Of a stretch of 64,000 nucleotides of DNA, positions 1,841 to 60,300 are shown in pieces. The stretch comes from Hydrolagus colliei (taxonomy: Eukaryota), in contig CM068751.1 in assembly GCA_035084275.1 (NCBI GenBank), forward strand, positions 4,774,001 to 4,838,000, read 5' to 3'. Position 1 is the stretch's first letter; every line of letters begins with the position of its first letter. Made by a program: the position numbers and the translations under genes. The notes beneath the pieces are model-generated. The model saw only the letters and a program-made list of their open reading frames with translations, made no database searches and was not told the DNA's origin.

Positions 1841-2140
1841 CCAACAAAATTCTATTCCATTTATATAGCGGCTTTCGTTTCAGGAGGATATTCCAAGGTG
1901 CTAGATAATCAGTGCTTCGGACCCGAGCTGGTGTCGGGATCAGGGAGGGGACGTGACCGGCGGCACAGTTGAAGAGGAGGTTCTCAAGGCAGGACTTGAA
2001 GGAGGCTAGAGAGAGGGTGAGGCAGAAGGATTGTGGGATGGAATTCCAACGGTTGGTGGCATGGTGGCTGAAGGCTCACCCGCCGATGGTGGGGTGAGGG
2101 TGATAGGTTTGCGGAGCCTAGAGCAGGAGAGGACATGGGC
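1841..2140 (-). mobile_element. L2-clade LINE 3' end, 5'-truncated
   Basis: Reverse complement aligns with the 3' part of the L2 copy at about 17150-17462 (ggcgggYgagccttcagccac, ccttcaagtcYtgcct, cagctcgggtcYgaagca, and the tail stem-loop). Confidence 0.85.
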
Positions 2141-3099
2141 TGCAGAGTTCTGGATGATCTACAGCAGCATAAAGTAAAGCTATCAGGAAAGAGGTTTAAG
2201 GATGTATGTCACCTCAGACTTCAGAACGTGTTGGAAAACGTCTTTTGTTTTGTAATGGCATTGGAGCATTGCTGGCTCATCAGGCACATCTACCTGTGCC
2301 ATGCTTTAAGTGACACCGACACTCCATATCACTTCTGAGTCACATCCTTGGACTTGTTCCGTGACCATCACAATCCTGTGTCTTATAGAAGGCAATTTAT
2401 TCTCCAATAATTGAATGCCAGCCCCTGCTTCAGATGATGAACCTCTACACCAGTGCCATGAGGCAAAACATGTTCATCTGGTTTCTATATTGGAGGAGCA
2501 GTTTGTGATTGTAAGGCTGTAACTTGATCAAGGGCTTCAGTTGATGGCTGTGGGTGGTCGTCCTGGTTGATGATCCCACCCAAATGATTCAATTCGAACC
2601 TTCTCCTTTTGTTCCCTGCCAGCACGCTATTATCTTAAACGCATTCAATGCACTTGTTTTAAAATAAAAATCTTCCAACCGTTGTACAACATTAGTGTTC
2701 AATTTAAGGGCAATTTCATCCCTTTTAACTTCACGTCTTGACTGCTAGACTTCTCAGCAGTAGCTGGCAATTCCAGTCATGTTTAAGGCCATGCTGACTC
2801 CAACTGCCTTGTTCAGTCTTTTTGTTGTGTTCCTTCAACCTTGCTTTATCATCTCTTGAATTGGGATGTAGTTTTCCACCATTCCTTTTTCTAATGATTG
2901 TCACAATTCACCACTTTTCCTCACTCCTCTATCTTCCCCTGCCCCCACCCATGTTCTCTGACACTCTTAATTGATCAACTCCTCAAAGTTGTCTGTCCAT
3001 TCCTTCTTTCTGTGACTCCCCGTGACCCATTCGCTAATTTAATCCCCATTGAACTCAGAGCTGACACCATGAGCCAGCCACCAATTATTGAAGCGCTGC

Positions 3100-3240
3100 A
3101 TATTTGAATGTCTGCTCTACTGACATTTATATATCCTATTTGAATACATCATATTTAATATATAATATTTAATATATCTGTATATACAATATTTAATATA
3201 TAATATTTAATATATAATATTTGAATTGCGCTCTACTGAA
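3100..3240. repeat. AT-rich minisatellite (atatttaatatata units) bracketed by a short direct repeat
   Basis: Repeated 'atatttaatatataat' units lie between 'tgaatgtctgctctactga' and 'tgaattgcgctctactga'. Confidence 0.7.
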
Positions 3241-4639
3241 GCAACCCTACTCAATTTGCAAAATATGTAGGTTTTACTGCACTTTTAATGCAGAATTTTG
3301 CACTTGTGGCTTTCAAAGGATCAGAATCCAGGGTGGCCACTGCTGGTGTGTGTGTGTGGCAGTGTGTGATATTCTGGAAGATCTGGACAATTTTCTTTTT
3401 GGCCACACATAGGGGAATTGATCCCATGGCACTATTCCAAAGCATTAAGAGTTTCTCTCAGTGCCCTGGCCGACAGAAATCCTCTGAATAAATTGGTCAT
3501 TTATTGCCCAGCTATAAAACCGCAGCCAATTTGCACACAGCAGGTCGCATAACCCAGGTCACTTTGACTTGACAGCACTTACCTGTGAAGCATATTGAGT
3601 TGTTTCATTGCGGTAGATGCTATTTCAAATGTAAAGATTATCCTTACATTACTTATTTATCCATAAAGCATAGGTTGTTTGAGTTGCAAGCATTGTGTGT
3701 GTGTGTGCTGTTTTATGTTTCTGCTGCATTGTTCACTAACCAAGGTGCAGTACTTTGTGGTCTAAAAGTTGCACAGCAAAAGAGAAGAGCAGATACTATA
3801 ATTAGTTTTAGAAATAAAATTCAGCACCATCGTCTTTGTGCAGATCTGCTGCCTTGTCTTGTGAAACTGCCATTGCTTCAAGTACAGCCCAGCGAAGGAA
3901 TAGGACATCTGCAAATATAACCTTAGCTCAGATCAATCCTTCTCTTTTCCTATCGTACATTTAATTTTGTTTGTTTGTGTGCGTTTTGTCATGTTTAGAG
4001 CTTAAAGGTTTCTGAGCTGTAAATTTATTTTGATGGAGTCTGCCCTGACTGGAAGGGACGCTAACTAATTGAGGATTGCAAAGAGATCGATAGCCCCCGA
4101 GTGATCCAATGGCCCTTTAGCAAAGATGGTATTGACACAAGACTTGAAGAGCATGCTCTGGGAAATCAGATGCCTCGTATTCAGGCCCGCGACTGCAGAC
4201 CTTGAAGTATCTTGTGGCCGGTTGTATTGATTGCTCTGAATACCAGAGGGGATAAACTGGCTTGTGCAAGATTCATACCATTGCTGCAAAATTAGTGCCG
4301 ATTGCTTAGTCAAATGGAATGAACAATAATGTGTGGAAAATCCCTGAGAGCTTGAACTGTTGGATAATTAAATTAATGTGGTATACAATTACCGTTAATG
4401 TATACTATATATATATATATATTATTTTGAACCCTTAGAAATGCTTCGAACTCTTTCCAACTCAGACAGGTCAAGTCCTTTCAATGTTCGGGTTATAATG
4501 GTTGGTCGGATTTTCGTTTTCCGAGCTAAGCGGAGCCTGGGGTTCGTATTGATCAGGAGAAAAAACACTACATATAGTATCGCTCAGAATACTGAGCCAT
4601 ACTCCTTGAATGTTGCGCCAATGCTATTACATCTACTGT

Positions 4640-4735
4640 TAATTACAATGCCATCGCAACACTTCACAGTGATTCCTGTGAAGCGTTTAGAGACGTCGCG
4701 ACAAAATGACATCTCAAATGCATGGATTATGATTC
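4640..4735 (+). mobile_element. SINE 3' tail fragment (L2-type tail)
   Basis: 'ctgtgaagcgtttagagacgtc...tcaaatgcatggattatgatt' matches the tail of the full SINE at 48040-48347. Confidence 0.65.
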
Positions 4736-6084
4736 TAGATGTGGGTGTTATCTTTCGTTTATCGTATTAGACCTGAAAGCTACAATCCATTGCAAACAAA
4801 TTTTACGGTCTGGGAATAGATTCTCAATGTGTAACGAGTCTGTGTGTTTATTAAGTAGCAATGGCCTGAAGTCATTCCACTTTTTAAGAAGATAAAATTG
4901 TTGAAGCTGGGCACTGTGCCAGGCCCCAGGAGCTTGTGCTGTACTGTTTTTACTCAATTTAAAGAAAAGGAGTTGACCTCAGCAGCAATAATGCTGGTTG
5001 TGTTCATGTCAACTCTACAGGAAGTCTTTCTGCTGCTCCCTGTCTTTGTGCCTCAACTCAGTGGATCCAGCTGTTGATTTGTCAAATTTTGAGGGTTATT
5101 TTAAAAATAGATCTCTTTAACTTTCGGAGTAATTGGGTCATGTTGATTTTGGTTCTGACACTGTGGCAGTACCGCTGTAAACAAAAACTACTTTAGCCAC
5201 CCAGGGAAGGCTGGTAATGGGAAGGTCGTTGAAGGCTGCACTGACATTTCCCAGTAATTGTCATTGATTTCAGTGAAAAAGAAACAACAGGGTGGATTTT
5301 TTTTTAAAGAAACATTATGGCTGCTGGCTAACAATTTAAAGGTCACACATTTGTACTATGTCCTGTTACCTGATGTTGTGGAGCCTTTGATGCTGACTGT
5401 GCAGTAGCCGTGTCGGAGGTTAGCATGCTGCTTTGGTTCTGAGCCATCAAATGCTGAGTAAATATTGAGATGATAGCAGGCTCCTAGTTTTCCTGTATGA
5501 ATTAGAAGAGGGATAAATTTAAGAAACTTAATCTGTGTGCAGAGCAGCTCAGGACCATTGTGGGAAATTAGAAGATCAGTCCTCCCCCAGGATGTGCTAC
5601 ATCTCACTGCACCTGGTCTGTGTAGTGAGCCATGTTTTTGATGGAGGTTATTTTTGTACTAAAACAGTGGCCAGGAATCCCCTGCGACCAACTATCAGTA
5701 TATCTCAAATGATCAATCCCACTTTGATCAATTTATTGAGAAGAGGAGCACTCATTCATCAGTTCCAATTAATTGTCTGCTTTCTCAGGAGTCTCACACT
5801 CTCTTCATTTCCATCACACTTTAGGTGTCAATGGCTCTACTCACTCCTGCAAATGCCACCAGTGTGTCAGTCTCACGGTAATGGGGCATGCAGCTTTGAG
5901 AGACTCTTCTCCAGCCACAGAAGAATGGTTTTTACTGAATTGTCAGCAGCTATAGTGATTGAGTGACTTTGTATCCCTGATTGCTGCTCGCCCTATCCTA
6001 CCTGATGTGATTCAAATCAACAACCTGTACCAAAATAAGTTGCCTTTGCAAAGATTGCAATTGAAATTCCTTGTCAGTCGTATA

Positions 6085-11632: not shown

Positions 11633-12652
11633 TAGGGAACGGCGATATATTGATATATCGCTAAAACCCGATATAATTTTCATATCGATATGCTGATATA
11701 GACATTTTAAAAATATCAATATATCGAAAAAACGATATATCGAGATAAAAAATCGGGATGCGAGCACACTGAACTACAAGACCCAGAATGCTCATCTCTA
11801 TACACAATGCACAGACCGAGGTGCAAAGCCGCCATCTTGTATTCATAGTCCTCGAATACAATATACAGGTATGCAAAGGGTGGGGGGAGAGAGACGGCTG
11901 TGGGTGGGGGGGGTGAGGGGGAGAGAGACTGCTGGGGGGGGGATTGAGGGGGAGAGAGACGGCTGGGGGGGGGGGGGGGTGAGGGGGAGAGAGACGGCTG
12001 GGGGGAGGGGGAGATAGATGGCTGGGGGGAGAGGGAGAGAGAGACTTTGGGGGGAGAGGGAGAGAGAGACTTCAGGGGGGGGGAGGAGAGGGGGAGAGAG
12101 ACGGCTGGGGGGGGAGGGAGAGAGAGATGGCGGGGGGGGGGGAGGAGAGGGGGAGAGAGACGGCTGGGGGGAGGGGGAGAGAGACGGCTGGGGGGGGGAG
12201 GGAGAGAGAGACGGCGGGGGTGGGGGGAGGGAGAAAGAGACGGCTGGGGGGAGGGGGAGAGAGACGGCTGGGGGGTGGTGGGGGAGAGAGACGACGGGGG
12301 TGGGGGGTGCGAGAGAGGGACGGCGGGGGGGTGGGGGGAGAGACGGGGTGGATGTGATAATATACAGATAGATAGAGATGGGGGGGGATGTGAGAGAGGA
12401 GAGAGGGAGAGAGACATAGAGAGACACAGACAGAAAAACACAGAGATGGAGAGAGTGAGAGATACAGAGAGAAAAATATATTTACCTCCTGAGAAGATAG
12501 GCCCCGAATGCGCGCGCACCCGCAATGCACGCGTAATCCGATGCGCGCGCATGCGCAGTACGAAAAAATAGAAAATATCGGTATTTCGGTATATCTCGAT
12601 ATGAGCCAACCGATATATCCATATCGGGAAATTCCCATATCGCCGGACCCTA
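11633..12652. mobile_element. Non-autonomous hAT DNA transposon (1020 bp)
   Basis: Perfect 8-bp TSD CTCTTTAG (11625-11632 and 12653-12660). 16-bp terminal inverted repeats (TIRs) TAGGGAACGGCGATAT / TAGGGTCCGGCGATAT. Dense subterminal CGATAT/ATATCG motifs at both ends. No transposase ORF. Confidence 0.93.
11878..12350 (+). repeat. G-rich minisatellite inside the hAT element
   Basis: Tandem units of about GGGGGAGAGAGACGGCTGGGGG(G)n with variable G-run lengths. Confidence 0.92.
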
Positions 12653-13568: not shown

Positions 13569-13770
13569 AATAATAATAATCTTTGCATTTGATATAGCAC
13601 TTTTCATGTCTTCAAGGCATCTCAGAGTGCTTCACAGAATATACTGTACAGTGGACTGTATATTTGTGGGCGAAACATAGCAGTCAATTGCGCTCAGTAG
13701 TGTCCCACAAACAGTCGTGCATTGAAATGACTGATTTATTAATGATTTTTGAGGGATTATTAATAGGAAT
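13569..13770 (-). mobile_element. SINE (tRNA-head, L2-tail family), 3' portion
   Basis: (aat)n-ctttgcatttgatatagcacttttc...tgtgggcgaaac...cccacaaacagtc...gagggatta is the reverse complement of 48150-48340. Confidence 0.85.
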
Positions 13771-15885: not shown

Positions 15886-16821
15886 TGATCTGAAAGGGGC
15901 TTGGATCTGCTCGTGGTCTTTCTGTGTCTTTTACCCTTTTCAGTCTCAATCTCCTCCGGCACCTTTCAACCATCTACCTCTTGTCTCTCTCTTTCACTAT
16001 AATCTGCCGGCTCGCTCACACAATATGTTTCAGCTCAGATGATGGGACAATTCCCAGTCCAGGCTGACTGTTCATACCTCCCTCCCCCATCTGATCCAAG
16101 CTACGGTTAGAGATGCAAAGTGCCTCCTGGAAATATACCTCTTCACATGCGAACAAATTGCCACTTCTAGCTAAATCAGGGAGCACTTGTACAACAAGTG
16201 TCTCCCATTACACATCCTGTATGCATGGGCTTCATCCTCTAATTTGAACGGTGTCTATTTTTAGGCCATGTGTCCATGGCACAGGTTTCAATTGGGGCTG
16301 GAGTTTGTTTCTGTGCAAGAATAAAAAACAACCGTTCGGAACTGAACTATGGGTATATTGCTTCCAATCTATCATTTAAATGCTTTGAGACATCCTCCCG
16401 ATGCTCTGGTGTTATATATGTGTAAATTGTAATACTGTAATTTGATAGTGACCTGAAACAGGACCCACTACTAATTTTCTTTCTATTTTCTCCCCCATTC
16501 CCCCCCACTCAGACAGACACACACACGTTCATACTGACACTCCCTCACCAAGGGTTTCTAATGCAAATTGTAGTACTCTTCCCCAGCTAAACTCAGCAAA
16601 TTCCACACCAACTAGTAATTGATCTGGGACTAATTGAGCCATCATCAGCCCTATTACGTAAAAGTATAGATGGAGTTAATGGATTTGGTCATCTCCGATA
16701 GAAAGGCCTTTCGACATTCTTTGGTGATTCATTGAACTATCCTTAGCCTGTCAGTGTTATAAAGAGCCCCAACCTGACTTGGTTTGCCTCTGAGGTGAGC
16801 TAACTGGAATTGTGTTATTGT

Positions 16822-17462
16822 AACATTGCCCGAATCCTCCACTACCTCACCCTCAAAACCGCTGAAACCCTCATCCACGCCTTCATTACATCCCGGCTCG
16901 ATTATGTAAACGCCCTGCTGGTTGGCCTTCCCAATTCCTCGCTCCACAGCTGCAGATAATCCAGAACACTGTGGCCCGTGTCCTCTACCATTCCAAACTC
17001 CGTTACCCCATCTCCCCCATCCTCGCCTGACTCCATTGGGTCCCCATCATCCAGAGGATCCAATTCAAGATCCTGGTCCTCACATTTAAAGCCCTTTGCA
17101 ACCTCGCCCCATCCTACATCCGTGACCTTTATCCCCTTACCAACCGGTCTGCCCCCTACGCTCAGCAGCCTCTGGCCTGCTCCACATCCCCCGACCCACC
17201 CGCCTCACCATTGGCGGGCGAGCCTTCAGCCACTCTGCCCCAATCTCCATTCCACAGTCCCTCCGCCTCTCCCTCTCCCTGGTCTCCTTCAAGTCTTGCC
17301 TCAAGACTCTCCTCTTCGATGGACCTATCGGCAACTCCTAAAGCCCCCCCACTCCACCCTCTTGTTCTCAGCTCGGGTCTGAAGCAGTGACTGTCCAGCG
17401 CCTTGGGACGTTCTCCTGATGTGAAAGGTGCTACACAAGTGTAATTTTGTTGTTGTTGTTGT
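16822..17462 (+). mobile_element. L2-clade LINE, 5'-truncated (ORF2 C-terminus, 3' UTR and (TTG)n tail), inactivated
   Basis: Manual translation gives NIARILHYLTLKTAETLIHAFITSRLDYVNALLVGLP [frameshift] LQIIQNTVARVL...ISPILA*LHWVPIIQRIQFKILVLTFKALCNLAPSYIRDL, the typical L2 ORF2 C-terminal region. Tail ends ttgttgttgtt; the flanks tgttattgtaa/tgttgttgtaa are TSD-like. Confidence 0.95.
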
Positions 17463-19525: not shown

Positions 19526-20741
19526 AGGAGTGATTGGGTGGGGGAAACTGAACATTATCCTCTTTAAATGGGCTTTAAAATGATCCATTGGCAAAGCTTG
19601 GGTCCCAATGTTAAAAAAAATCTGTCGACACAGATCTATATCCTAATATTCAGCATTGTACCACATGCGGTGTAAGCTGTAGTTAATTGAAAACAATAAC
19701 CCTTGTATTTGATATCGCGCCTTATCATCTCATCAATAATAGCCTAGTCCTGGTATTGTCTGTTTTAGTGATCAGTTCAATGGATTGCCAGTAACCTTTC
19801 TCTGCATTCCTACCATGGTCTGTGTTCAAGTTGTGCTTTTTTTGCTGCACTTAGAAAGGTTAACAGAGCCAGAGATTTTGTAGACTTTACTTATTCCTTT
19901 CAAGCTTGTTAGATTTTGGGTGTAATCCCATCATATCCCTTGTTGACTGTTGCTATGTACTGTATTTACGAAATGCAGTGTTGGTTTGGCAGTTGTCCAG
20001 TCTCTGGCCCTCGTTCGAGCTCTCTGCACAGCGCTTGTCAATGCCAATTGATTTTATTCTGGTTGAAAGAGTTAAGACTATTCCTGATCACATTGCTGTC
20101 TGTTCTGGTGGCAGGTGGGCAAGGACAGGGGGAAATCTTCTTCATCATTCTGCAGGAAAGCATTTGTGACAGGTGCTATCAGTTTTCCAAGCTCTTTTAT
20201 TGCACGATCTGTCAAGTCAGGATCATTGTTTGGGCCTTGATACATGCAATATGCTTTGTTTGAGTGCAAGAAGATTCAGATTTTTCAGTACTTTAACCTA
20301 GCCAATTATATTAGAGGGAACATAGCTCTAATCCTCTAATTATAATAGAGCAAGTTTGTCTGATATTTTCAGTGACACACACACCATTTATTTTGCAAGT
20401 TGCAAAGCTTGTCTGGTTCTTCTCCTTGTGTAAATCAATTTAAGTCAAGTCACCGATTTACTTACTGCCTTTTATCAGCCACAAAAATGGATTGTCTGAC
20501 CAGCTGGTATGTTGCATGTGGTGTTGCCTCCCCTACTCTCAATCCTGTTTCCTCGTTCAGACATAATCCTATGAATCCTGTTTAGCCTTCCCTCATTTCC
20601 CCCCTGCTGATAACCTGGCTGCCGGTAGATTGGAGGTGGATTTATTTTTAATTTTTAAAGATTGGTTTATCTCCTCTGGTTAGACAGCGGGTCACAGGGG
20701 ATAACTTGTTTAATGTGTTGATGCGTTGGTAAGCCTCAACT

Positions 20742-20815: not shown

Positions 20816-21679
20816 GCTGACTGGTGTACAGAAGTCTGGTAGAAAACTATAGTTCACTTCTCTGCCTTTGCCATCGTTGCAATGCTTTATAGCACTATTT
20901 CAGTGACAGCACTCATCCCAGCTGTAGAATAAAGCTCTGCAGTATGATTTAAAAGGACCACTACACGTGTTGAACCTGTGCATGTTTACCCAATTGTCCG
21001 ATTATCTTCACTTCCCTCCGCCATTTCATCTGTGCTGGGAGGTGGCGGATCCTGCCGTCAAATCCGACCACTTTGGAAAAATGTGGCATCAGGTGCCACA
21101 TTTTTATCTCGGTGTCAGAAAAGCTGTGAAGCAAAATGTTCACTTGACATGAGTGGGTTCCTTTCAGTGGATTTGTGCGCAGCACACCCACAGAGCTGGG
21201 CTGACTGTGGCAAGATTCCTTTCCAGTGATGCAACATGTTCTGTCCTTCTCCTTTCGACCATTGTCTTCCCTCCTCCCTCAATCCCATCCCACCCCCACT
21301 CCTTACCCCACACCACCGCGGAGAATTGCTCTTCTGTCGTGTTGTCACATCTACCCCCCATTGTGAACTCAGCGAGTAGAGATAGAGAACGGCTCCAAGG
21401 GAGTTCGGCTGTCCAGGGGATCAGCTGTAATGTGATTAACAGCAATTTGTTACGCACCAGCAGTTCTTCCACAGCTCTTACAATCAAATCATGCAAAATA
21501 TCTCAATTTTTAAAATGCCATAACCCTGGCCTTGGGTCGTTGTGTAACATATCACCAAAGGTAAGACAGTGTCTGCTGATATGACTTTGAGTGTGAGGCT
21601 GCACTGATTCCAATTTAATAAGATTCCACCCCCCGCCCCCCACCCCACTCCCCAATCCTCTCACAACTATCATCCTCTA

Positions 21680-25540: not shown

Positions 25541-25593
25541 TTATGTTCCTTTTTTCTCCTGAGAGGAATATAACTGTGTTTGTTAATCTTAAA

Positions 25594-26105
25594 CAGGTAT
25601 CCCCAATTTACGACAGGGTTGCGTTCCTGAAAAATGTCACGCAAATCGAAATGTCGTAAATCGAAACGCAGTTTCCCATGCGGTCCCATTATGTAACCCA
25701 AGATGCATTCTTTTCACAAAATTTTCAGATTTTAAACCCACTAAATAACACACAAAACAACACTCAAAGCACACAAAATAACACACAAAGCACAAAAAAT
25801 AACACACATAGGCAATATGGGGTACTCGGGGGCCTGTACTGGTTAATACTGGTTAAATTACTGCAATACTGACTTGGCGCGGTGTCCCTTCAAAATCAGC
25901 TGACTTTTAAACAATGCTAGTGACCAGTTCAAACGTTTGGCTACACTATACAACTGTGATTTTACCACGAAATACATTATGTATTGCACATACACAAAAA
26001 AGTTATTTTTATCATTAAAGCAAAACCAAATGTCGTATATCGACAAATAATGTTAGTTAAATCGAAACAGTGTAAACAGAACCCTCGTAAATCGGGGGAT
26101 ACCTG
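25594..26105. mobile_element. Tc1/mariner (Tigger/pogo-like) MITE
   Basis: TIRs CAGGTATCCCC-AATTTACGA / CAGGTATCCCCCGATTTACGA. TA on the right flank, AA on the left. Subterminal tgtcgtaaatcga repeats and an internal aaataacacacaaa tandem repeat. Confidence 0.88.
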
Positions 26106-26189
26106 TACCCATATAGCTGATGACTTACTCAATCTATCTGGGTTGAACCCTTCATCTCCCAACAGAGTGCTTATCACATTGTCAACGTG

Positions 26190-29735: not shown

Positions 29736-32700
29736 ACATATTAGAGTTTGTGTTGCAGAGGAATCAGTAATATGCCTTGACGAGCCTTCATCAACAACAC
29801 CAATGACAAGTTGCATTTGTACAGCACCCTTCAGGCAGAGTAGCATCTTGGAGTGCTTACATTAAGTTGTGCCAATCAATCTTTGCAACTTTCTGACAGA
29901 ATTAAGTTAATGGGTCCCTTTGAGACGTCTCAAAGGCATGGTAAGGCGCAAATGCAAAAACGCAGGATTATTTCATCATGTCTTCAAAATAAATTATTAA
30001 AAAGAATACTAATTTACATTAGTTTTCCCTCTCTCCTTATCGGTTTTCCTTCAGTAACTGGGTACTGAGGGCGAGTGCTCCAGTCTGCCTTCAAGTTGAG
30101 CTAAATTGATAAGTAGAAGGGGCTGCATCGCATCAATCTGGGTCAATGATGGAGAGAGCTGCACCATCAATGATCAAGCGTTGTCTGGCTCAGTAACTCT
30201 ATTAACTCCCTGTTCACCCAGTGATGTCATTTGCAGGCCTTGTCCGAACAGAAAATATTCACAAAAAACACAGCTGAAAATAAAGATAGGTACTGATAAT
30301 GTAAGAGCCTCTTTAAGCTGCATTGTTGAGTGGCTTGTAGGCCACCAGTGTGCAGATGAATAAACTTGCATTTTCTTTCGAAAACCTTTGCTGGAGAGAA
30401 CGAACATGTCATTTTTCTCTCATTGATTTCAGGCATGAGAGACACTGTAATAATTTTGAAATGCATTGATGCAAGCATCACGATCACATCTGTGCCTCCT
30501 GCCAGTGGATAAAAGCCCGCCACACATTGGGGATAAAAATGATGTCCTTTCAGATCATATTTTCTCTTTAGAACGTTTTTTTGAGATCAAAGCTTATCAA
30601 ATAAGTTTAGACATTCCATGCAAGCCAAGCGTGGTTGCCTTTATAAGCTGAACAAATTGTGACTTAATTTCCTCTGCAATATACAGTTCTGTGCAAGCTG
30701 GTTTTTTTTCCGCCCTTTTAACACAGTGTCTCTGTTCCGAATGGACTGCAGATTTTAATGTAGGTATGGACAAAAGCTCTTTACGGAATTGCTTGACAGC
30801 TATATAAAGGAGGTGGGTTTCAATGAGATCAGATGGTGTAGATAAGTCGGGTCTAAATCCACTATATGTGTGGTGGATTGAACGCAAAGATCCAGATAAT
30901 GTGGATCAAAGGATTTTTCATTTAAACTGGGTTTTGCATTATTTCACTTTTTTTTAACTGAGATCTGCGGCTCAGATTTTCCCCTCCATGCAGTAATGGA
31001 CACTGAGTAATATCCTATTACTGCTGTATGAATGAATCTTGTTTTATGCTTATGTCGTAGATGCTGATATTTTCTCCGGTGTGAAACCCTACACTGGCTT
31101 TTAAATATATACAGTGCATTAAGAGTGAGGTTTGATGTGATTTAACATACTGTATAACTTCTCACAGGTCCTAATCTGCAATGCCCTGCCTAATAGGTGA
31201 TGATTTTGTTTTTCTGTTTGATGTAACATGAACTGAAAATAGGACATTAAGTAACATGGTTAATGCTACCTGATGCTGTCCATTAAATATACATGATTAA
31301 CCCTATTGCAATAAATTTGCTACCATTTTTGTAACCCTGTTTAGGATTCCTTTTAATATGGTCTGATTATAAGCCTGTATGGTTTTAAAAATGATGTTTA
31401 TAGTGAGATTACTGTCTGTCAGTGACTATTTTCCAGTGGAAATCATTAATTACTTGGGAGTTTGTCATAAGGGTATTGTGTTACAATAGTTTAGATTCTG
31501 CTCCCTTATATAAGAGACTGTTGAAACACAGAAATAATGGGTTACCAAATACTGATGAAGGACTGCAAATTCTCATTAGTTTTGTTCCTTCAGCCTGTCC
31601 TGTTGTCAGTTGAACCTCTGGTCGCTATGTTTTCCTAACTTCAAAACCAAAGTGAAAGGGAAAAGCGGAGAAAATTGAAAATATAATTGAATATTGAGGA
31701 ATGCAAAACATATATCTCCAGTATTTGATTGTGTGTGTATGTGTGTGCATGTGTAGAGCTGTTTTGAAACCTTCCCTTTTGGGAGAGTGTTCGTGGAATA
31801 CAAATTAATTGCAACAATCAGAGTGGTGGGATCTAATTCAATTAGCTGTGATTTAAGTAACAAGAGCTCGAATGGTGCCAGTGGCCTTCAGAGTAAGCGA
31901 GCGCAGGAGACATTCAGATTCACCCCGAGTCAGCTCGCCTGAGGCACTAACAGGAACGAGGAGATAATGGCCGACCAATGTTAAGAGTTTGAATCTATTA
32001 AAGCTGCTTAATGCCGCCTTGCTGAAGTACCTTAATGAGGCACTGAGAGTGACATTTCCAAACATGTCAGTGTCACCATGTCGTCTACACTGAGTCTGAG
32101 GATTTCCGTGAAGCCGATAAGATGATTAAAATGGCCTTCCGCCTGGACAGTTTTAAAACCTTTTACTTTCTATGTAGTGTTTAGTCTGATTGAACAATCG
32201 ATGCGACGATTCGTGAAGTTCGCTCCGAAAGCAGAATTCCGCGTTATTTTGTGCTGATGGTTGACGTTGTACTGTGAAGTCCTTGCGTCTAAAATTGTCC
32301 TTTTCTTTATTAAAAAGAATGTTCAATTTTGTTTTAATTCTGCTCTGCCAGCGCTTTCGTAATTCACAAGTCGAGTTTTAAAAGAAGTAGACTGAGATCG
32401 TTAAATGACACTACATGTCATTCCAATGTAAACAATGACACAAGGTTGTTGCTTATTGAGACTAGATTATTGTTGTTAAAGATGGTCAACGGAGTCTGAG
32501 GTGAAAGGGCTACTACTGAGCTCAATGCCACTGGGTCAAGATGGAAACCAAGCTGGAAATTTCCACTCTTAATAACAATCCAACGACTCCATCTGGTGAC
32601 TCCCATGTGAGATGTGGGGTAGCAGAAGGGGCTGGGAGCTTGTGTCTGTGGAAAAAAAAAGTCCTCAGCAATGGGAAGGGTGATTAACGAATTAGAAATG

Positions 32701-32874
32701 TGTGAAGAATCGTCCCTGTAGAAATTCCTGTGGTGTGACCACAGCTCTGTGAGATGGGGTTAAAACATAACATCTGGAGTTGCCAAATATACCCACCGAT
32801 GTAGAACAATTCCTTTAAACAGCTTGTTGTATTTTAGGAGTTATTGCAGTGAGGACTGTCTGTCTGTCTGCATT

Positions 32875-32986
32875 TACTGACGTGTTTTCTTTTTCTCTCT
32901 TCTCTTCTCGGTTCCTCTGGAATGCTTCTGATTCGCTGCGCTTCCTGAACATTCCTTGGCTTGTCACCATTTGGATATAGGTAAGT
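32875..32986 (+). promoter_or_regulatory. 3' splice-site architecture abutting a consensus 5' splice site (candidate recursive splice site)
   Basis: TACTGAC at 32875-32881, then a CT-rich tract. No AG from 32854 to 32978. The first AG (32979-32980) is immediately followed by GTAAGT. Confidence 0.7.
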
Positions 32987-33414
32987 TTTATTTTAGCTTC
33001 GTCTGGCTTTTCCCCTTCTTCACTTTAGACCCAGGAGGAGGTGCTGAGGAAAGCACTTAGCCTGTTACTTCAACACTCTTGTTCACAGATGATACAGAAG
33101 TCTTGTGATTTCTGCAGTCCGGTTATTTACCTTTGTGAAAGGTGCTACTGCATTTAAGTGCAAAAGTGGCTAAGTATAATTTCCCAAAATGTTACTTACA
33201 TTTTTCCCTCTCTCTTCCACTATCCCACCTCCCAACATCAGTTAAAGTGATCCTTTAATACAACTAATTTGACTCCTGGATGGCATGATTGAGAGAAACC
33301 ACCCTGATGAAAGCTTTACTGAGTTATTTTGGTCGGTGCACTGAATGGGAGCCTTGTTTGGATATTTTTTATTTCCACCTTTGGGGAGGGTAACTCGTGA
33401 ATTGATTATTTTAT

Positions 33415-33503
33415 GGGTGGGGTGGGGGGGCAGGGGACGGGGGTTGGGGGGACGGGGGTGGGGGGGCGTTGGGTGGGGGGGCGTTGGGTGGGGGGGCATG
33501 GGC
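33415..33503 (+). repeat. G-run tandem repeat (G-quadruplex-prone)
   Basis: gggtggggggcgtt-like units and many runs of 3 or more G. Confidence 0.85.
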
Positions 33504-33867
33504 ATCAACTGGTTAAACTGAGCAAACAGTTTGTCAATGCCTCAGTCAGTTGGTGACATCACTGCAAGAGAGAAATGTAGATCTTACTCTATAATTCTGG
33601 TGTCATACTCTTGTTAGAAATACAAAATTTCATTCATTGCTCACAGCACTTGCTGGACTTTAATTTTGTTTGAAGAATATGCTCCTGTTTCCTCAGTGGA
33701 TGTGTCACGAGCTGAGTTCCAGGCCAGTCTGATATCCCATTCTATCAGCCAGGCTTCATGGTGACTTCTGTCAGTTTTTGCCTTGGTCAGTAAGTGACAC
33801 AAGAAAAGGACAGGAGGAAGAAGCACTGCTGATTATGTAGATACTCGTCTCTGTCTGACTTTCATAC

Positions 33868-34045: not shown

Positions 34046-36480
34046 GGTAAATGATTTACCTGGAGTTTAAGCTTGTTATTGGTAAAGAGTGAAGAGAGAT
34101 TGAATCTATATTGATCCATTGTGTATTTTATTGTGAAACTCTCCTTGTTGTGCAAGGTTCTGTTTTAAAGTAATCTTGACTACAGTTGTTACTGATGTAG
34201 CCACAGAAGCGGAAGTTAAAATTCAGGCTGTGTTTCTAGAAATATCTGTGTCCATATTAAGAGTATCTACCAGAATATTCCAAATCTCTTCATGGCTTCA
34301 CCTTCTATTTTGTATTTCAAATGCCATCTACTCCAGAAACTGGCACCAAACATTGTCCATTGCTTTCAAAATTACATTTTCTGTTTAATGCTGTGAATTA
34401 ATTAGTATTCATCAGCTCTACCCGCCACAAGTGCCTGATCGTATTGAACTCCGTAGACCATGTTCTCTCCCGCAACATGGACAACCAGTTTCCCTTTAAC
34501 ACTGAAACATTCTTTGTTTCTAAGTGAATCAGGTGAATTTAACAGATCAAATCACAGTGCTCTTCATTATGCAATGAAACAAATGAATTGTTCAAACAGC
34601 TTTCATAATGCACCTTGATGCCTTATACTTGTTGAATAGCCGTGAGCAGCTTTCTCAACAATGTAGGGCTGCTAACACATTGACTTTAAGATTGCAATGG
34701 GCCACATTAGTGTTGCAAGGAAATAGCCTCTTAAATTATTTTTATACATTTGAAAAAGGAGAAATGGTTCATTATTGCTAATTCAAGACAAGTCTGCCGT
34801 AGACTGGAGAAGCCTTGGCGTCATTGTTAAACAGGATTTCAGCACTGAAGGCAAAAAACAAATCGCTTTTGCAGTTGCTTTGTTCCATTTGCAGTCTTTA
34901 GTTGTGTAAATTGGCAGCACTGCTAAGTGTCTACAGTAAAGCTCAATGTGTGGCATCTGTTACCTGCAGGCATCGAAATATCGTTCAAAATATACCCAAT
35001 TGGCTGAATGTCCAGACATTAATGGCACATTGTCTCTGGCCACATATTCTTCCCACAGCAGTGTCTACGATGTGAAGAGATGTCCAATTTGTGTCATGTT
35101 TTTCCTCCCAATGTGAAAGGCGCTATACAAATGTAGTTTTGTATAAGTGAAATATCCTTTGAAGCTCTCTTGGATTCATTTATTTTTAGAAAAAAAGTGA
35201 ACACTCACTGAACCAATTGGCATGCTAGATACTTTAAATTAGTGGCCTTGATATGGAGAGAAAGTCACCTTTCAAACCAAAGTGCTACTTGTCTTGTTGG
35301 TGGTCATTATGAATAAATCTATTCTAATGGACTTTATGTGTAGTCTAAATTTCACATTACTAGCCACACTCTTTTCTCTATCTTCTTCTGATTACTTTCA
35401 AATTTCAGGATGAAACATCAATAAATATAAAACATTTTTTTTGAAGAAATATGTTATTTATATATATTTTCATATGTCTAAGCTAAAAATATGTTAGAGA
35501 GTAATACAATATCAAAACAGCGTTTCATTTGGAATGGGGAGCCTAAGGCCAGCTGCTGAGGAGAATCAGAAAAGAAGGCAGTCTTTTGCTCAGGGGTGAA
35601 GCGCATTTATGAACACGTGGTTTTTGGCAGACAATAAGCCATTTAATTTTTTTTTAGCAAATGCTATTGAATTTGTAGTCGTAAAAGAGGTAAAAGGGAG
35701 ATTTGGGTGATTCTTTGAAGTACTAAAATGCCTGAAAGCAATAGATGGCCTTGTATTATGCTATGATGAGCATATTGTAAGCTATTATATATATATAGTC
35801 ACAGTTAGTTGCTTTCATTTCTCTCCTTCCCCAACACCCCCACCACCCCGCCCCCAACCCACCACTCCTCACATTTTCATTGAAATGATCAATGTTCTGT
35901 GTACTTCAGCACTGGATATTTATTGGGGTCCATCAGTAGTGCATTATTCCACTCGGATACTCTGTGTAGGGTGTTAATGTGCTATGAGCACAGTTTTAAA
36001 CCCTTGGTCTTTTTCTCAGTCAGCGGGAGTGCTATCTGGACCAGACCCATGCTGTGAAGCTGGCATTGAAGGCTCGATCGGTTAAATTCAGGACCAGCCA
36101 AAAATTTATTTTTCATTTGAATAGTGTGCTGTCGATATGAGAGTGATTCTGACAGCTGTATTGGGTGGCTGAAATTCCCTCGGATGGGCTTCCAGGGTGA
36201 CTGCAGATCTGAACAAAAGCCCTTTGAGTCTGCTCACGAAATATTTGAGTGCTTTTTGCTCATCATAAAAATCCAAAGGGGTTGTAATGTGTAAAGGCTA
36301 TGTTGAAAACTGCTGCTGTCAGACTATCTGAATTGTTGAACTTTTCGACACAATACATAATCCTTGGAAAAGGCAGCAATGTTTCGCTGTAAGTTTGAAA
36401 TTCTTAGCATTTTTAAACCAATAACTTTATACTTGCAATGCAGAATTGGCTGCCCCCTCTTTTTAATGTTGTATATAGTG

Positions 36481-36877
36481 CACTAAAACCTTCGTTATCC
36501 AGCACGCTCGGGACCTGACCTGTACCGATTAATCAAATATGCCGGACATTCGAATGGGAAGTTGCCAAAAATCCACCAAAAAAAATGTGCTTATTTTAAA
36601 ACATACTAATAATAGACTAAATAAAAACAGAATTTTGTATGGATACTTACTAATAAAGCATTCCAGCACACTCAGTAAAATGATCGGTAAAAAAGCATTC
36701 CAGCATTCGGTAAGTTTAATAAGTGCGATGCGTACGCATGCGCAAAGTGAGCATACTGCGAGTGTCCCGGATGGCTATGGAATGAGATCTGGTTGCTGGA
36801 ATGGTGAATTGTATGGGGAGATAACGGTTGGTTGAGTATGCCATTTGGTTGGGAACTGGATAAACAAGGTTTTACTG
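36481..36877. mobile_element. Tc1/mariner (Tigger-like) MITE
   Basis: TIRs CACTAAAACCTTCGTTATCCAG / CAGTAAAACCTTGTTTATCCAG, with TA at the right flank; internal direct repeat aaagcattccagca twice. Confidence 0.8.
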
Positions 36878-37137: not shown

Positions 37138-37500
37138 CCAATTTCCCCTCTTTCTCTTTTTGTCTTAAGAGCACTGACCCATATACTGAGGTGTGCTTCT
37201 GTGTGCAATAACTACCTTCTGATATCTTGTTCAAATTGATCTACAATGGTCCTAAACATTTTGGACATGAAGGTTGACATCACGGGCAAGCTTGATCCTA
37301 TTCTTGTCACCCATCATACGTAGGCATTTTTCAGCAAAAATCAGTGATTAACTATGGGGAATAGGAACCCTGGATATTTTATTTCCCCCTCCCTTCCTAG
37401 CCCAGGGTCGCCAAGGACAATTGCAGCATCTTTCTTTATTGCTGCTTGTCTGACATCAGCTTAATTATCAGAAAATAGGAGCTGAAGTCCAGATCATGCT
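37138..37500 (-). mobile_element. AmnSINE2-like SINE, near full length, diverged
   Basis: ccaatttcccctc (3' end) ... aggaaccctgga...ccctcccttcctagcccagggtcgccaaggacaattgcagca...ctgacatcagctta. Confidence 0.65.
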
Positions 37501-40500
37501 ATTCTCTGTAGACTCTCAAGTGAACTGGTGGTGGTCCTTTAATTACAAATGTTACTGCATGGTCTGGCATTTACACAGAGCTTGTGCATGCACACACTGA
37601 ATTCATTCCAATGGGATTTTCAATAACATTTAAAATCAGGAGGCAGAAGATGTCAAATAAAGCTGCGATGTGAACTCCCAGAGGAATTGAGCCCAACAAC
37701 AAAAAGAAAATGTGGCAGGCCGCAAGAGAGAGCCTTTAAAGTATATAATTAACTAACCAATTTCATTAGTTCTCTCCAGAGCAAAACCTGTTGCTTCAGG
37801 CTATTGAATGACTGATCTTTCCCATGTACCTGAGATGAAATAGATTTCTGATGCCTTAATGAATGTTCTACCTGTGTCACTGGAGTTTGATCAGTCGAGG
37901 GATCTACGGGGGGATGACTATTCAGTAGTGTTGGGAGCCAGGGCCTCCTGAAGAAGCCGTGCTTACACTCACTGCATCCTGTCTGTGTCTTTTAACCTTC
38001 CAAGCCTTTTAACTTTTCCTTCCCATCTGATCACATCACTGCTTGGATGTCCTTTGGGCAGGCTATTTTGGGCTGCTGCTCAAATAGTAGCTAAGACCTA
38101 TTTCTCAGTCAGCAGATTGATCAAGGTACCAAAACTACTATATGTGTTATACCCCTTGACCACCCACTTCCCTTCCCCAGATAATCTTGCCTGAGTGGCA
38201 GAGTGGAGGAGCTGATGTCCTCTTACTGAGTCAGTTACTGAATAAATTCACAGAGCATTAAGAGGAGCGAACCTAGAGCATGTTTATTCACTGTAAGCCA
38301 AACTCTGACTCAAAACTGTGGCCCCAGCATGATGCATCCATCTTCCAACAAGCTGTTACTTGGTAGTGTTAAACAATGACTTGTGAAGAAGGTTACCTCA
38401 GTGTTTTGACTACAGTTTAACCAATAGCTTTACTTCAAGGTCACTGCTCTTGATTGCCGCCCAGTATCCCTTGATGGAATGTTGATCTGTGCCTGTGCCA
38501 AGGTGGGATGATGGGGGAATGGAGCCAGCAGGATTTATTAGGCAGTATGAGGGAATAGAAGTATCAGAGGGCTAGAGTGTGAAATTGAGGGGTGGGAGTT
38601 TGGGATCAAGCAAACAGAGGGCAGATAAATGGATACTCTAAATTAAGATGTCTGCTTATAGGAAGAGGAGATGCTTAACAGTTTTTTTTAAAAAATCAAT
38701 AAATATTTTGAGGGTATAATATGAACCTCTGAGCTTTGACTCACTCCTCTTTACACCCATTACTGAAGCAATTATAGCAAAACAAGCTCTCCTTCAGCCG
38801 GCCAACAAAACAAGAGGTAATTTGATGCTGCTTTTAACGTGAGCGAGAAGGATTGTTGTTTGGGGGAAAAAAATCAATTGAATCCGTTGAACCAGGATAT
38901 TTGCATCTGCATGGGTGAGGTGGAGCAAGGAGGCCTAGATTACAGGAATATGAAGCATCAGTAACTCTCATCAGATGAAGCATCTGCAACCCTCCAGCTT
39001 TTTCCTTTTCTCTCTGATTTTAATCGTGGAAAGGCGCAAACTATTTCATGTGTTTTATTTTGGAACTCAGTCAAAACCAAGTCTTGGCAGATTATCCTCT
39101 AGAAACTCCTTGGCCTTTTGTACTGTGATTTTATCAATTTTTTTAATGTTGTTTTTATCTTCTACCCCTGTGGCCTTCTCTTGCTTTTATATTCCCTTCC
39201 TCCATTCCTCCCTCTCTTTCTCTCTCCTCTCTCTCGCCCCATTCCCCCTGTCTAAAAAGAAATTATGCAGAATCCCTTCAGGAATCTGCCTACTTCTCCT
39301 TGGCATGGCATAAAAACACTGCTCTTCGGTATGCCATTGTCACATTAGGTGATTCGCTGTGTTGGTGTGTGGGATGTTACTTTCTCACACACAATTTCCA
39401 GAATCTTTATAAACCACTTGAGTGGATCTCGGAGACCTCCCGGCTTTTCCAGTTTATGACTTGCAGGTGTCTTCAGTGTCTTAGCTCTAAGTACATTAAG
39501 AACATTGATCCTGACATTGGAATGCCCCAGATCTGCAATGTTTGTGAAAATTCCTCTCTGACTTTATCCCTGTAGTTAGACAACAAGACGGGTGATGTAT
39601 TATTACACCGCATTCCATATAAGATTAACATTCTGTGAAGGCCTGACTCAGAGGGTTAAGAGAGGACTGACTCTTTTCACCTCAAGGACCAAGGGTTTAT
39701 CTTCAGTCTGTCCGATGGAATTCTCCTCTTGTCTTTGCTTGCAACACAGCTTCTGAAAATGTACCACCCAAGGATGTGAGAGTCCACAGTCCAAATGAAA
39801 AGTTGCTGAAAATTTTGAAGTCTTTCTGTTGGATCGAAGGATTCTGACATGAGACCTCCGGGGTACTACACCTCCTCTAGTTGAAATATTGAGACTGTTC
39901 GTAATCTCCAGGATCACTGCGATGCACATTCTATTGGCGGCCTTTAATTTTGAAGATGAGAGTCACTGGTCATTCATTTCATGTGCTCCATTTTATGGCT
40001 ATATCATCAAAGTTGTGTTAATACAGGACTTCCTGCACTGAGTTGATGTGAAAGCCCTGTTATTCTCACCTAGCTGTTATTTGAACTTACTGGTGCCATT
40101 GTTGCACAGCGCTTGTGTATTTTGTTTTGCCTTTGGCAATGATGTTGAGTTTTCAAATTGAGTCTTTTCCGATGCTACCCAAGTCTGAGGCCACCAGTCA
40201 ACAGAAGGACACAAATACAAAGGGCCCTGTGTTAATTGAATTCTTGCAGTCATGTGGGGATTAGTGCTGCTGTTCATGGTGGATCTTATTCATTGTCACT
40301 GTGATGTAAGGGAAATGGGGTCGTATTGCTGTCTCTGGAGACATTGAGACACACCTAAAGAGATTCATTCGTGACAGTTTCAAAGGAAGGAGCACCAGTG
40401 CCAGAAGGATAAACACTACACAGTGAAATGTTGGAGGTTGATTTATTTGGTTTATTTTTGAGTTGTCCAACAGTATGGGATTTCCAACAGTTGGCCTGAA

Positions 40501-48039: not shown

Positions 48040-48347
48040 GAGTCCTGTAGCTCAGTTAGAGCACTTGCCTTGCAAGAAAGAAAGATCTGGGTTCAATTCC
48101 AGGCAAGGTGAAACCTTGGGCAAATTTCCTCGCTCCACATGCCTGAGAATTATCCCTCAACAAAAAAGAATAATGAATTAGTCAGCTCAATCCAAGATTG
48201 TTTGTGGGATACTGCTGTGTAGCAATTGGCTGCTGCATTTGGCCCACAAAATATACAGTCAATTCACTTTATAGTATACTCTTGTATTTTGAGACATCTA
48301 GAAGATGTGAAAAGTGCTATATCAAATGCAAGGATTATTACTATCAT
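48040..48347 (+). mobile_element. Full-length tRNA-derived SINE with L2-type tail
   Basis: A box tagctcagttag and B box ggttcaattcc (48090-48100). The body ttgtttgtgggatactgctgtg..aattggctgc is DeuSINE-like. Tail stem-loop and (att)n end. Many partial copies in the window. Confidence 0.92.
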
Positions 48348-57330: not shown

Positions 57331-60300
57331 TTTGTGTGTTTGTGGGTAAATGCCACAATTATATACAAGTTATATTTATACACAAGATCTAACCAGGAAA
57401 TAAACCTGATAATATAATATACATCACTCTCATGCAATGTGAGAGATGTTCTGGGTTCTTTTGGGGTTAACAATCAGATGTGGATATGCTAACAGCATAG
57501 TTTCAGGTTTTCTGTGCTCATTGTAGCGGCTATAATCACCAATGGCCAAGTTCACCCTGGAGTCAAGTCCCTTCAGAGTTTGAGGAGCTCCGAATAAATT
57601 GATGGCTGGACACGCTTCCTCCTACAAATGCTGCTTGACTAGGACTGCGCTTTTATTGTGGTTTCCAGGAAAATTCCTTGCCCCACAGTTCCCTTTTTGA
57701 TTCAGTGTCCAGCCTAAACGTCATCAATAAGTTCCAATTGAATAAGATATGCGATGAGTGTCAATCATGTTTCATTATTGGACATAAGAAATATGGAAAC
57801 TATACTGTTTACTGTTTTTTTGTATAAATGTATGTGATGGCTTTGTGTCCCCACAGCAAGAGAGTGGTTTGATCAGACAGTTGAATGTTACACCCCTCCC
57901 TGACAGATTTTATTTATCTCACACAACCATCAGACCCAACAGACCAGCTCTCATCAGAGAATTACTATCAGTCCCGCTAAAGATGCCCTTCCCTTTAAGT
58001 CCATCTCCCCTCCCCACCCAACACTCATCTACTGTGGCATCTAAGAATATTACTGCTAAAATATCTTATGACAGATAATGCCAGAAGCTCTTTTGCTCTG
58101 GGATTGTCATTAGAACACACAACTTTTTATAATGTGTTCTTCTGAGAGAAAGCTTTTCTTTCTGACAGAATTTAACTCCAAGGACATCTTGAACATGGTT
58201 TTAATCATGCAAACAACATATTGTCTCGATTTACATTCAAACCCTAGCACGTTGTCATTGCAGGATGACGATACAGTTCCCTTATTCATATTCAGCTTGT
58301 GTAAGCAGTCGGTTCAAGTTAAAGGGATTATACAGTATTGGTCTCCGATTCCATACACTTCCCCGTCCAGAATCCAGCAATATCTGTTTTCACATGGAAT
58401 GTCAGGGCAACAACTGACATTCAGGACAAAATATCTAAATGTTACTTTTCGTTGCCTAGTGTTAACATCATAGAATGCAATTCTGGCCAGTCACACCTCT
58501 GGACGCAAAAGATGAAGTTGGTGGCATCTCTGTTCACTACTACGGGATGGCTAGGAATACGAGATGATGCACAAATATCTCTAGAAATTGCAATTTTGTT
58601 TTAATTGTGAGTTGATGTAGAAGATCATGTCTTGCGATCTGCCTTTTGTAGTCACGAATGACTTGTCCCATGAGTGATAAACCTTCTTTCACACAATGTG
58701 AGAGATTTGTCTTTTGTGAATCTTTTTTTCACACCTGTCAATATTTGATTCAGTGGCGCATATAGTGAGAAATGCAATACACAGAATGACCTTTCTAACT
58801 GGACTTTTAATTGTTGATAGATATTGACTTACTTTGGAATGAGAAGTAGAATTTTAAGACCCATGGTGAAATAACATGCTGACATTCATACATTAATCAG
58901 TGGAGATACTGAAGGGTGTCCATATTCATTTTTTCCCCCCAGTCTCCATGAAGCCCTATCACTAGGAAAGCAAGGAAAAGGACTCCCAATGCATGCGGTG
59001 GAAGGGAAAATATTTGTAGGAAAAACAAAAGACAAAGCTTTTCTCTCATGATTTCATTTGAGCCCTTCGAGGGTGTTCCAGCCAAGTAGTTTGCTCTCAG
59101 CCATCTGCTATTCTTTCTGTAACATAATCGCAAGTTTCTGACGCCCTTACAGTCTGGAAGAACGAAGCTGAATCTGTCTCTACAAGTTTCTTGACCTGTG
59201 TGATTGGGTTACACCCCGGCTCTCTCTCTCTCTCTCTCTCTGGATTTGTTGGAATACTTCATTAAGTGGGTGGCAATGTTTTTGTCTTTCCTCAATAACA
59301 AAATAAGTACCTGCAGGATACCAGCACACCACTGATGCCCTTGTGTAAATCACTTCACAGACGCAGCATTGTATATTTGAACAGGAAATATAAATACACG
59401 CTGAACACAGTGTGAAATGCCAATCTCAAACAGATATACAGAGAGTCTGTAGTCAGAAAAAAATGCAGCAAAACTAATTTTGAATCTAATCTGATCCATC
59501 TTGTGCAGATGGGGTTAAGACCCTTCGATGATAGGAATTTTTGACTGGAAGCAGTGTGAATTTGGTAAGGGTCACTTAATTTGGCTTGAGGTTTAGCCAC
59601 TAAGCGTGTCAAGTAAGTGTATGAGTGCTAGAGTAGAATAACCTAATGCTGTATCCAATGGTGTCACATGGTGGTGAATTGCATTGGGAAATTGTCTCAT
59701 CTGGTTCTCACCACAAGACCACATCTGCCCTTAATGTCAGCAGAGGTTACTTCGGCATCCAGGGTTTGCCAGAAATTAGAATAAGTTTGTAAGCGAAAGT
59801 CAACCTAATTCAAGCCCCAAAGGAGCCCAATATTATGTGTTGTCTACCACGGGTAGCAAGTGGCCAATTTTGGTTAGTGCTTTTGAAACTGTAAGAAAAG
59901 CTGGTGGGGTGGGGGAGTTTGCAGTTTTAGATTAATACCCAACACTGTAGTTCTACCCACAGTACATCAAAATTGAGCATGAACCCAACATTGTCTGCAC
60001 CTAACCTGTGTTCTAACTGATGTGCAAGTGTTTGATGCCGAAAAACGAGAGGATTTTGTCAGCAATGTCTCACTGTAAGTCCAGGTCTTGTGTTTGTTTC
60101 CCGCGGTGGGTGTCCCCACCTGGAAAGACCCGAGCAGCAACATAATCCATGCGTCACAAGCACTTTAAGACATTTATGCCTATGATAATGCGTTGATAGA
60201 ATTTGCTCAAAATGTGCAGTACAGCAAGGTGATCGGTATCTGAAAGTGAAAGACAGATGGACTTCAAATCCCAGGAGTGACCAGCAACATCCACTGTCTA

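Follow-up and report, generated by a model that had tools for sequence, protein, structure and literature searches.

A candidate recursive splice site with a distant branch point in a 64-kb genomic window

Can a splice acceptor and a splice donor that share one junction, with zero bases between them, be served by a branch point 100 nt away? The question is raised by a locus near the middle of the window (the whole 64-kb stretch of DNA analysed here, whose coordinates are used throughout), which the original prediction had read as a candidate recursive, or zero-length, splice site. We find a real and rare sequence anatomy at this locus, for which the best reading is a candidate site of recursive splicing whose branch point lies at a distance.

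Anatomy of the candidate site

All elements of the site lie on the plus strand, and those named in the original prediction were confirmed letter by letter. The main branch-point-like heptamer, TACTGAC (32875–32881), places its branch A at 32880 and scores 7.2 bits, a value reached by 0.044% of positions (the weight matrices used here are approximate and not MaxEnt). A polypyrimidine tract begins 4 nt past this A and halts at CGG (32909–32911); 25 of its 26 bases (32884–32909) are pyrimidines, and the pyrimidine content over 32882–32918, corresponding to the claimed CT tract of about 35 nt, is 89%. Read base by base, the 125 nt from 32854 to 32978 are free of AG as had been proposed, and two of the TGC motifs attributed to this zone fall within 32912–32980. 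The first AG past the branch point (32979–32980), 100 nt downstream of the branch A, is directly followed by the donor GTAAGT (32981–32986), whose positions –2/–1 it also occupies. With 10.8 bits, this is the second-best donor on the plus strand. As a local acceptor the same AG is weak, ranking 422nd of 4030 with 4.5 bits on our own matrix, where the top 20 acceptors score at least 10.4 bits.

Four further features went beyond the original prediction: the CGG 31 nt from the branch point, additional branch-point-like motifs at –49 and –32, an acceptor 48 nt past the donor and a CpG-rich block upstream. The GG of the CGG (32910–32911), 31 nt downstream of the branch A, stands where an acceptor AG belongs. 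It scores 9.85 bits without the dinucleotide term, and an AG in its place would add 4.0 bits to reach about 13.9, more than any actual acceptor on the strand attains (13.3 bits at most). Between the GG and the donor lies an exon-sized spacer of 69 nt (32912–32980), 64% pyrimidine, with three YGCY and two TGC motifs and a stop codon in each of the three frames. The site thus looks like a 69-nt exon without its acceptor AG. Freedom from AG over 67 nt is found in 2% of window stretches and in 23% of those equally rich in pyrimidines, and the spacer may resemble a scanned intron end more than an exon. Within it, a secondary branch-point-like motif (32926–32932; A at 32931, –49 from the end of the AG) reaches 5.8 bits, which alone is not significant, and a third (32943–32949; A at 32948, –32) reaches 4.5 bits and overlaps the TG and AA dinucleotides that had been proposed as alternative acceptors. 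Folding around the site was no better than that of shuffled sequences (equalled by 147 of 200 and by 19 of 100 shuffles), and no fold hiding the terminal AG was found (z 0.57).

Downstream, a strong canonical acceptor of 11.0 bits (33004–33028) ends 48 nt past the donor and may be linked to the site. The stretch that opens with it (33004–33141, plus strand) continues into sequence that is purine-rich at first and open for 42 codons, with a donor of just 3.8 bits; it gave no protein match. Donors downstream of the site do not exceed 4.1 bits within 400 nt; the best farther on score 6.6 bits at +409 and 6.8 bits in G-runs.

Genomic setting and rarity of the combination

The window has a GC content of about 40% and contains simple repeats as well as dispersed short repeats with pairwise likeness of 69–97%. 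Of its 32 blocks, 27 have more T than A and 24 have more G than C. In vertebrates, such a combined skew is the usual mark of the sense strand, and plus-strand transcription of the window fits it. Our working picture therefore places the site inside a very long plus-strand intron of some vertebrate gene; the window could be intergenic DNA instead.

Searches for a host gene were negative within their scope. The roughly 31 kb on each side of the site yielded no flanking exon. Against Pfam, none of 135 plus-strand and none of 128 minus-strand candidate ORFs scored above the curated cut-off, with chance-level matches in four and six, respectively; this query set comprised ORFs of at least 25 aa containing a candidate exon, plus one extra, whereas the window holds 653 and 672 ORFs of at least 30 aa in total. 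Protein-homologue searches with the ORFs at 33029–33154, 17031–17387 and 19864–20166 gave no match, which is weak evidence, and a HMMER search with 21153–21581 against 1.84 billion representatives returned zero matches. Three ORFs at the site gave zero, 21 and zero matches in the PDB, the 21 being to ROCK1/2 at chance level (E 1–1.4). Rfam yielded nothing at E≤1 for 32300–33600, and a 14-base stretch across the junction had no occurrence in the literature full text searched.

Other elements of the window are recorded here in their own right. The sole Rfam match in the whole window is a tRNA-like head at 48041–48111 (31.8 bits), which opens a SINE-like family (48041–48347) with copies near 13569, 28391, 29575, 44762, 54284 and 61710, mostly 75–92% alike; we presume that it resembles the Deu-domain SINEs of cartilaginous fish. 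Two degraded LINE-like 3′ fragment copies (16800–17460 and 1837–2094), 69% alike and in opposite orientation, drew a blank in a homologue search; we take them to be L2-like. As a whole, the repeats are reminiscent of the SINEs and LINE fragments of cartilaginous fish. The ends of three CpG-rich stretches (11640–12650, 25590–26110 and 36475–36760) resemble inverted repeats by eye, in a MITE-like manner, the first spanning a long G/A tandem array. Finally, two plus-strand stretches have exon-like borders: 86 nt at 21475–21560 (7.0/10.7 bits), AG-free and with one open frame, without a Pfam or representative match, and a 21-nt, frame-preserving, microexon-like candidate at 37170–37190 (9.4/7.6 bits) past a long pyrimidine tract.

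How unusual, then, is the site? Single parts are ordinary within the window. AG-free runs of at least 100 nt number nine per strand, and those of at least 125 nt five on the plus and four on the minus strand; TACTGAC is found seven times on the plus and twice on the minus strand, and AGGTAAGT occurs once per strand. On plain AG|GT scoring, the site comes third of 196 on the plus strand and is equalled by minus-strand sites at 60119 and 3582. An AG|GTAAGT, which inside very long introns had been taken as the signature of recursive splicing, does not identify such sites by itself, as the minus strand also has one.

The combination, in contrast to its parts, is unusual. A composite of branch point, tract and donor gives the site 29.4 bits, the highest value in the window, ahead of 23.5 bits for the next plus-strand site and 27.3 bits for the best on the minus strand (3773–3582); the latter ends in CAG|GTAAGT, the strongest donor on either strand, and serves as an internal control. 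None of 60 windows from a block-wise Markov null reached 29.4 bits (maximum, 27.4). A strict filter for branch point plus tract was passed by this site alone on the plus strand and by two on the minus strand. When such a unit was placed at 127,069 real positions, the next AG was a donor of at least 10 bits at a distance of at least 30 nt in 63 cases and of at least 65 nt in 21, giving a conditional chance of 1.7e-4 to 5e-4 (about 1 in 2,000–6,000) per branch-point/tract unit. In 5,000 windows of an order-5 Markov null—which under-produces tracts, with 0.064 units per window versus the one or two observed—320 units arose, two of them with such a donor and none with one at 60 nt or more. All thresholds were chosen after the site had been seen and are thus post hoc. 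With about 1–1.5 strict units per strand-window, the conditional chance of 1.7e-4 to 5e-4 would predict several to dozens of such sites over the tens of thousands of windows of a multi-gigabase genome. We infer that chance does not account for the site within a single window but could do so across a whole genome. Its billing as the one clearly functional signal in 64 kb was not borne out, an AG-less 69-nt exon and a chance occurrence on the scale of a genome both being viable alternatives.

Possible recursive splicing and competing explanations

Our best explanation, to which we give appreciable but clearly less than even weight, is a deep-intronic recursive splice point on the plus strand with a distant branch point. 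On the branch A at 32880 and the adjoining tract, U2 and U2AF would assemble, and step 1 would run without an AG, like that of known distant-branch-point introns. In these, according to Gooding 2006 (PMC1431707), an AG-free zone opens with the branch point and tract, step 1 is AG-independent and step 2 scans to the first AG past the distant branch point. Applied to this site, the same established mechanism would scan to the AG at 32979–32980 and join the upstream exon to G32981. Ligation would recreate the GTAAGT donor, which would then be spliced to the next exon, and the mRNA would keep nothing of the site. Spare branch points may be provided by the motifs at –49 and –32. Such splicing may be efficient and under selection, or may amount to harmless, low-level use. 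There is precedent for an exon-terminal YAG|GT acting as a recursive acceptor in ten lariat-supported cases with MaxEnt scores from –2.6 to 11.6 (Hoppe 2023, PMC10156609).

This reading is favoured by the top composite score in the window, and by the fact that the first AG of the sole strict plus-strand unit belongs to the second-best donor. Against it stand the local acceptor, which looks weak on our matrix, whereas nine of nine described human RS sites reportedly score at least 5 on MaxEnt, with 19 of 23 mapped branch points located 20–50 nt upstream (PMC6110456), and the fact that the next 400 nt contain no donor scoring more than 4.1 bits. Donors that define an RS-exon accompany 50–69% of candidate sites (PMC6110456), and recursive splicing has been described as beginning with RS-exon definition (PMC6224609). 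Moreover, the CGG at the end of the tract stands as far from the branch A (31 nt) as the acceptor of an ordinary exon would. The proposal of recursive splicing stood in part: it follows from the known scanning rules if the branch point at 32880 is used, and the base skews fit the plus strand, but features of vertebrate RS sites are missed or marginal. The site may work like an RS point.

The plainest rival is coincidence, in which a strong donor-like word is preceded, by accident, by a strong pyrimidine tract and a branch-point-like word, with no measurable use and no conservation. We consider it rather unlikely, although still a serious contender: each part recurs elsewhere in the window, the minus strand offers the 27.3-bit composite and equal AG|GT sites, the genome-wide expectation of several to dozens of sites and the post hoc thresholds both speak for it, and a donor for an RS-exon is absent nearby. 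It has to contend with the nulls, in which 0 of 60 windows attained the score and no case at 60 nt or more arose in 5,000 (the latter null under-producing tracts), as well as with the placement of the site on the skew-favoured strand and next to the top CpG block of the window. Less probable in our estimation, and unlikely overall, is a non-coding or poison cassette exon of 69 (or 70) nt with GG at its acceptor, be it through a dead substitution, an allele or assembly error, an AG-less decoy or a non-canonical acceptor; such a unit would be defined across the exon, with U1 bound at the donor and U2AF at the tract. Among the rivals, an acceptor-dead, mis-called or decoy exon fits the geometry of the site best: the GG follows the branch A by 31 nt, has a pyrimidine at –3 and coincides exactly with the end of the tract, an AG there would outscore every actual acceptor on the strand (13.9 vs 13.3 bits), and the unit is of a length typical of exons, with stops in all three frames. 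A conserved GT-GG acceptor is documented for BANP, with AG in fish (PMC4176328), and conserved decoy exons exist (PMC7373989). However, the BANP GG is an alternative site (PMC4176328), and TG acceptors were in no case found to act alone (PMC2374985). A tract end one mismatch from AG is also weak evidence, as six of the 15 non-AG dinucleotides qualify arithmetically. Only about 2% of ordinary exons would be expected to lack AG over 67 nt, so the simple loss of an acceptor would have to coincide with a second rare event. Unclassified non-canonical borders are for the most part probably errors, and polymorphisms of splice dinucleotides occur (PMC1557818, PMC2882926). Supplement 3 of PMC4176328, covered for 14 of 14 GT-CG and 16 of 176 GT-GG rows, gives no flanking sequence against which to match an orthologue.

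The donor could also be real without any acceptor, ending an alternative first or hybrid exon that originates in the CpG-rich block or just upstream, with the CT tract as 5′ UTR or promoter sequence. The block (31869–32399) has no second copy in the window and overlaps the 500-nt stretch with the highest CpG o/e (1.03 in 32001–32500, against a window mean of 0.35). It lies 0.6–1.1 kb upstream of the site, is AT-rich (40–44% GC) with TAAT words and a CCAAT at 31975, and is possibly a conserved non-coding element, an enhancer, a promoter or a transposon remnant. While its CpG retention, the CCAAT and the strength of the donor suit a first exon, the GC content is low for this role, several other CpG peaks resemble repeat remnants on our reading, donors of 6.1–7.0 bits at 32501–32680 would terminate the exon earlier, and the branch point adjoining the tract is left unexplained; we regard a first exon as quite improbable. 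More improbable still is a 33-nt, frame-preserving mini-exon via TG (32946–32947), or an acceptor created by A-to-I editing of AA (32948–32949), two ideas of the original prediction for which the positions were correct. A TGC lies 8–10 nt upstream of the TG, two of the three frames are open through the 33 nt, UGC is found between branch point and AG in about three-quarters of SRRM3/4 microexons (10.1101/2024.09.17.613571), and edited GT-AA acceptors exist (PMC4176328). Yet TG sites are known just as alternatives no more than 28 nt from an AG (PMC2374985), and here the AG ends 33 nt past this TG and 61 nt past another at 32918–32919. Without the dinucleotide term, the TG scores 4.5 bits, and its distance of 67 nt from the branch A compares with a median of 45–47 nt in neural microexons (PMC12871342). 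Editing is disfavoured as well: the best duplex partner for the AA within 27–39 kb reached –29.2 kcal/mol, a value exceeded by five and equalled by one of 25 controls, no inverted repeat over the site was present among the 25 longest of 62, and an edited AA would yield 31 nt, which does not preserve the frame.

Three further leads were considered and set aside. A neural microexon of the SRRM3/4 type (3–27 nt) would agree with the UGC, but zero bases separate AG from GT. For a U12-type intron, a one-mismatch motif at 32942–32950 and an AC at 32966–32967 would leave a 13-nt exon that does not preserve the frame, and no exact motif is nearby. The third lead concerned the second-best plus-strand acceptor (38156–38230; 13.1 bits). 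The sequence from 38180 onward may resemble the start of the SCN1A poison exon 20N, and the 70-nt reading of the site may resemble SCN8A 18N. No Nav motif, no ion-channel Pfam match and no donor 64 nt past 38180 were found; SCN1A 20N measures 64 nt and lies in an intron of about 8 kb (PMC7790302). An 11-base stretch from this lead was absent from the accessible text of PMC11981616 and from two supplements of PMC7790302, and 10.1101/2025.08.16.670673 likewise gave the resemblance no support.

The recursive reading also has a more specific form, which we regard as improbable: a conserved ratchet point defined from upstream, by the AG-less 69-nt pseudo-exon, rather than by a downstream RS-exon. 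U1 on GTAAGT, together with U2AF and U2 on the tract and branch point, would bridge the pseudo-exon, and scanning would cross it to the donor's own AG, allowing splicing solely as a zero-length exon. An exon could have turned into such a recursive site through one AG-to-GG change, with switching perhaps exerted by factors on the YGCY/UGC spacer. Published screens demanded either a short tract adjoining YAGGT (PMC10156609) or a MaxEnt score of at least 5 (PMC6110456), and this class of candidate would therefore escape them. If true, the upstream-defined ratchet would be invisible to RS pipelines that demand a strong local acceptor, and would show how changing a single base could convert an exon into a ratchet point. 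If used and conserved, the site would mean that a distant branch point can be enough to specify recursive splicing in a vertebrate, with neither a strong local acceptor nor a downstream RS-exon; if unused, it would be an ordinary coincidence or a dead exon.

Comparison with known systems

The exon-like face of the site has its own parallels. In the GT-GG acceptor of BANP (PMC4176328) and in TG-AG tandems such as that of GNAS (PMC2374985), a GG or TG occupies an acceptor-like position past a good tract, as here. Those cases are alternatives beside a nearby AG, whereas the AG of the candidate lies 69 nt from the GG and 33 and 61 nt from the TGs, and is part of the donor. The decoy exons of OGT, SF3B1 and SNRNP70 (PMC7373989) are likewise deep-intronic, exon-like units with stops for which inclusion in the mRNA is unnecessary. 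They differ in residing in retained introns of 1.8–3.3 kb and in being defined by junction reads; for the candidate, no flanking exon came to light in the roughly 31 kb on each side.

For the preferred reading, a recursive splice point, the closest reference is the set of vertebrate RS sites with RS-exons (Sibley 2015 via PMC6224609, PMC5126111 and PMC6110456). These sites carry YAG|GTAAG in a very long intron, as the candidate apparently does, and contribute no exon to the mRNA, as it would not. The AG|GT junction with a 5′ splice-site motif is present here as TAG|GTAAGT (10.8 bits). Unlike in those sites, the tract and main branch point are not adjacent to it but lie 70–100 nt upstream, the local acceptor looks weak, and no good donor follows within 400 nt. 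Relative to the norm of 20–50 nt for RS branch points, the best motif is at –100 and the weaker ones at –49 and –32. Among the literature matches listed, as titles or abstract starts and with subscription papers mostly outside, neither an RS site with a distant branch point nor one in cartilaginous fish was described.

Distant-branch-point, AG-independent acceptors are a second point of comparison. In alpha-tropomyosin, alpha-actinin, PTB exon 11 and GABBR1 exon 23 (PMC1431707), a strong branch point with an adjoining tract likewise opens an AG-free zone, and the sequence hallmark of this group—an extended AG-free zone headed by a branch point and its adjoining tract, with more than 40 nt between branch point and AG—is found here at a distance of 100 nt. 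Those acceptors lead into a real alternative exon, whereas the first AG of the candidate runs straight into a donor. Distal exonic recursive sites, in turn, show how a YAG ending an exon-like unit can itself be the acceptor, with intron and exon leaving together (Hoppe 2023, PMC10156609). There, inclusion of the exon is also possible, through an AG acceptor of its own, whereas the candidate reads GG at that position; in both, branch-point motifs lie inside the unit, those of the candidate at –49 and –32 within its 69 nt.
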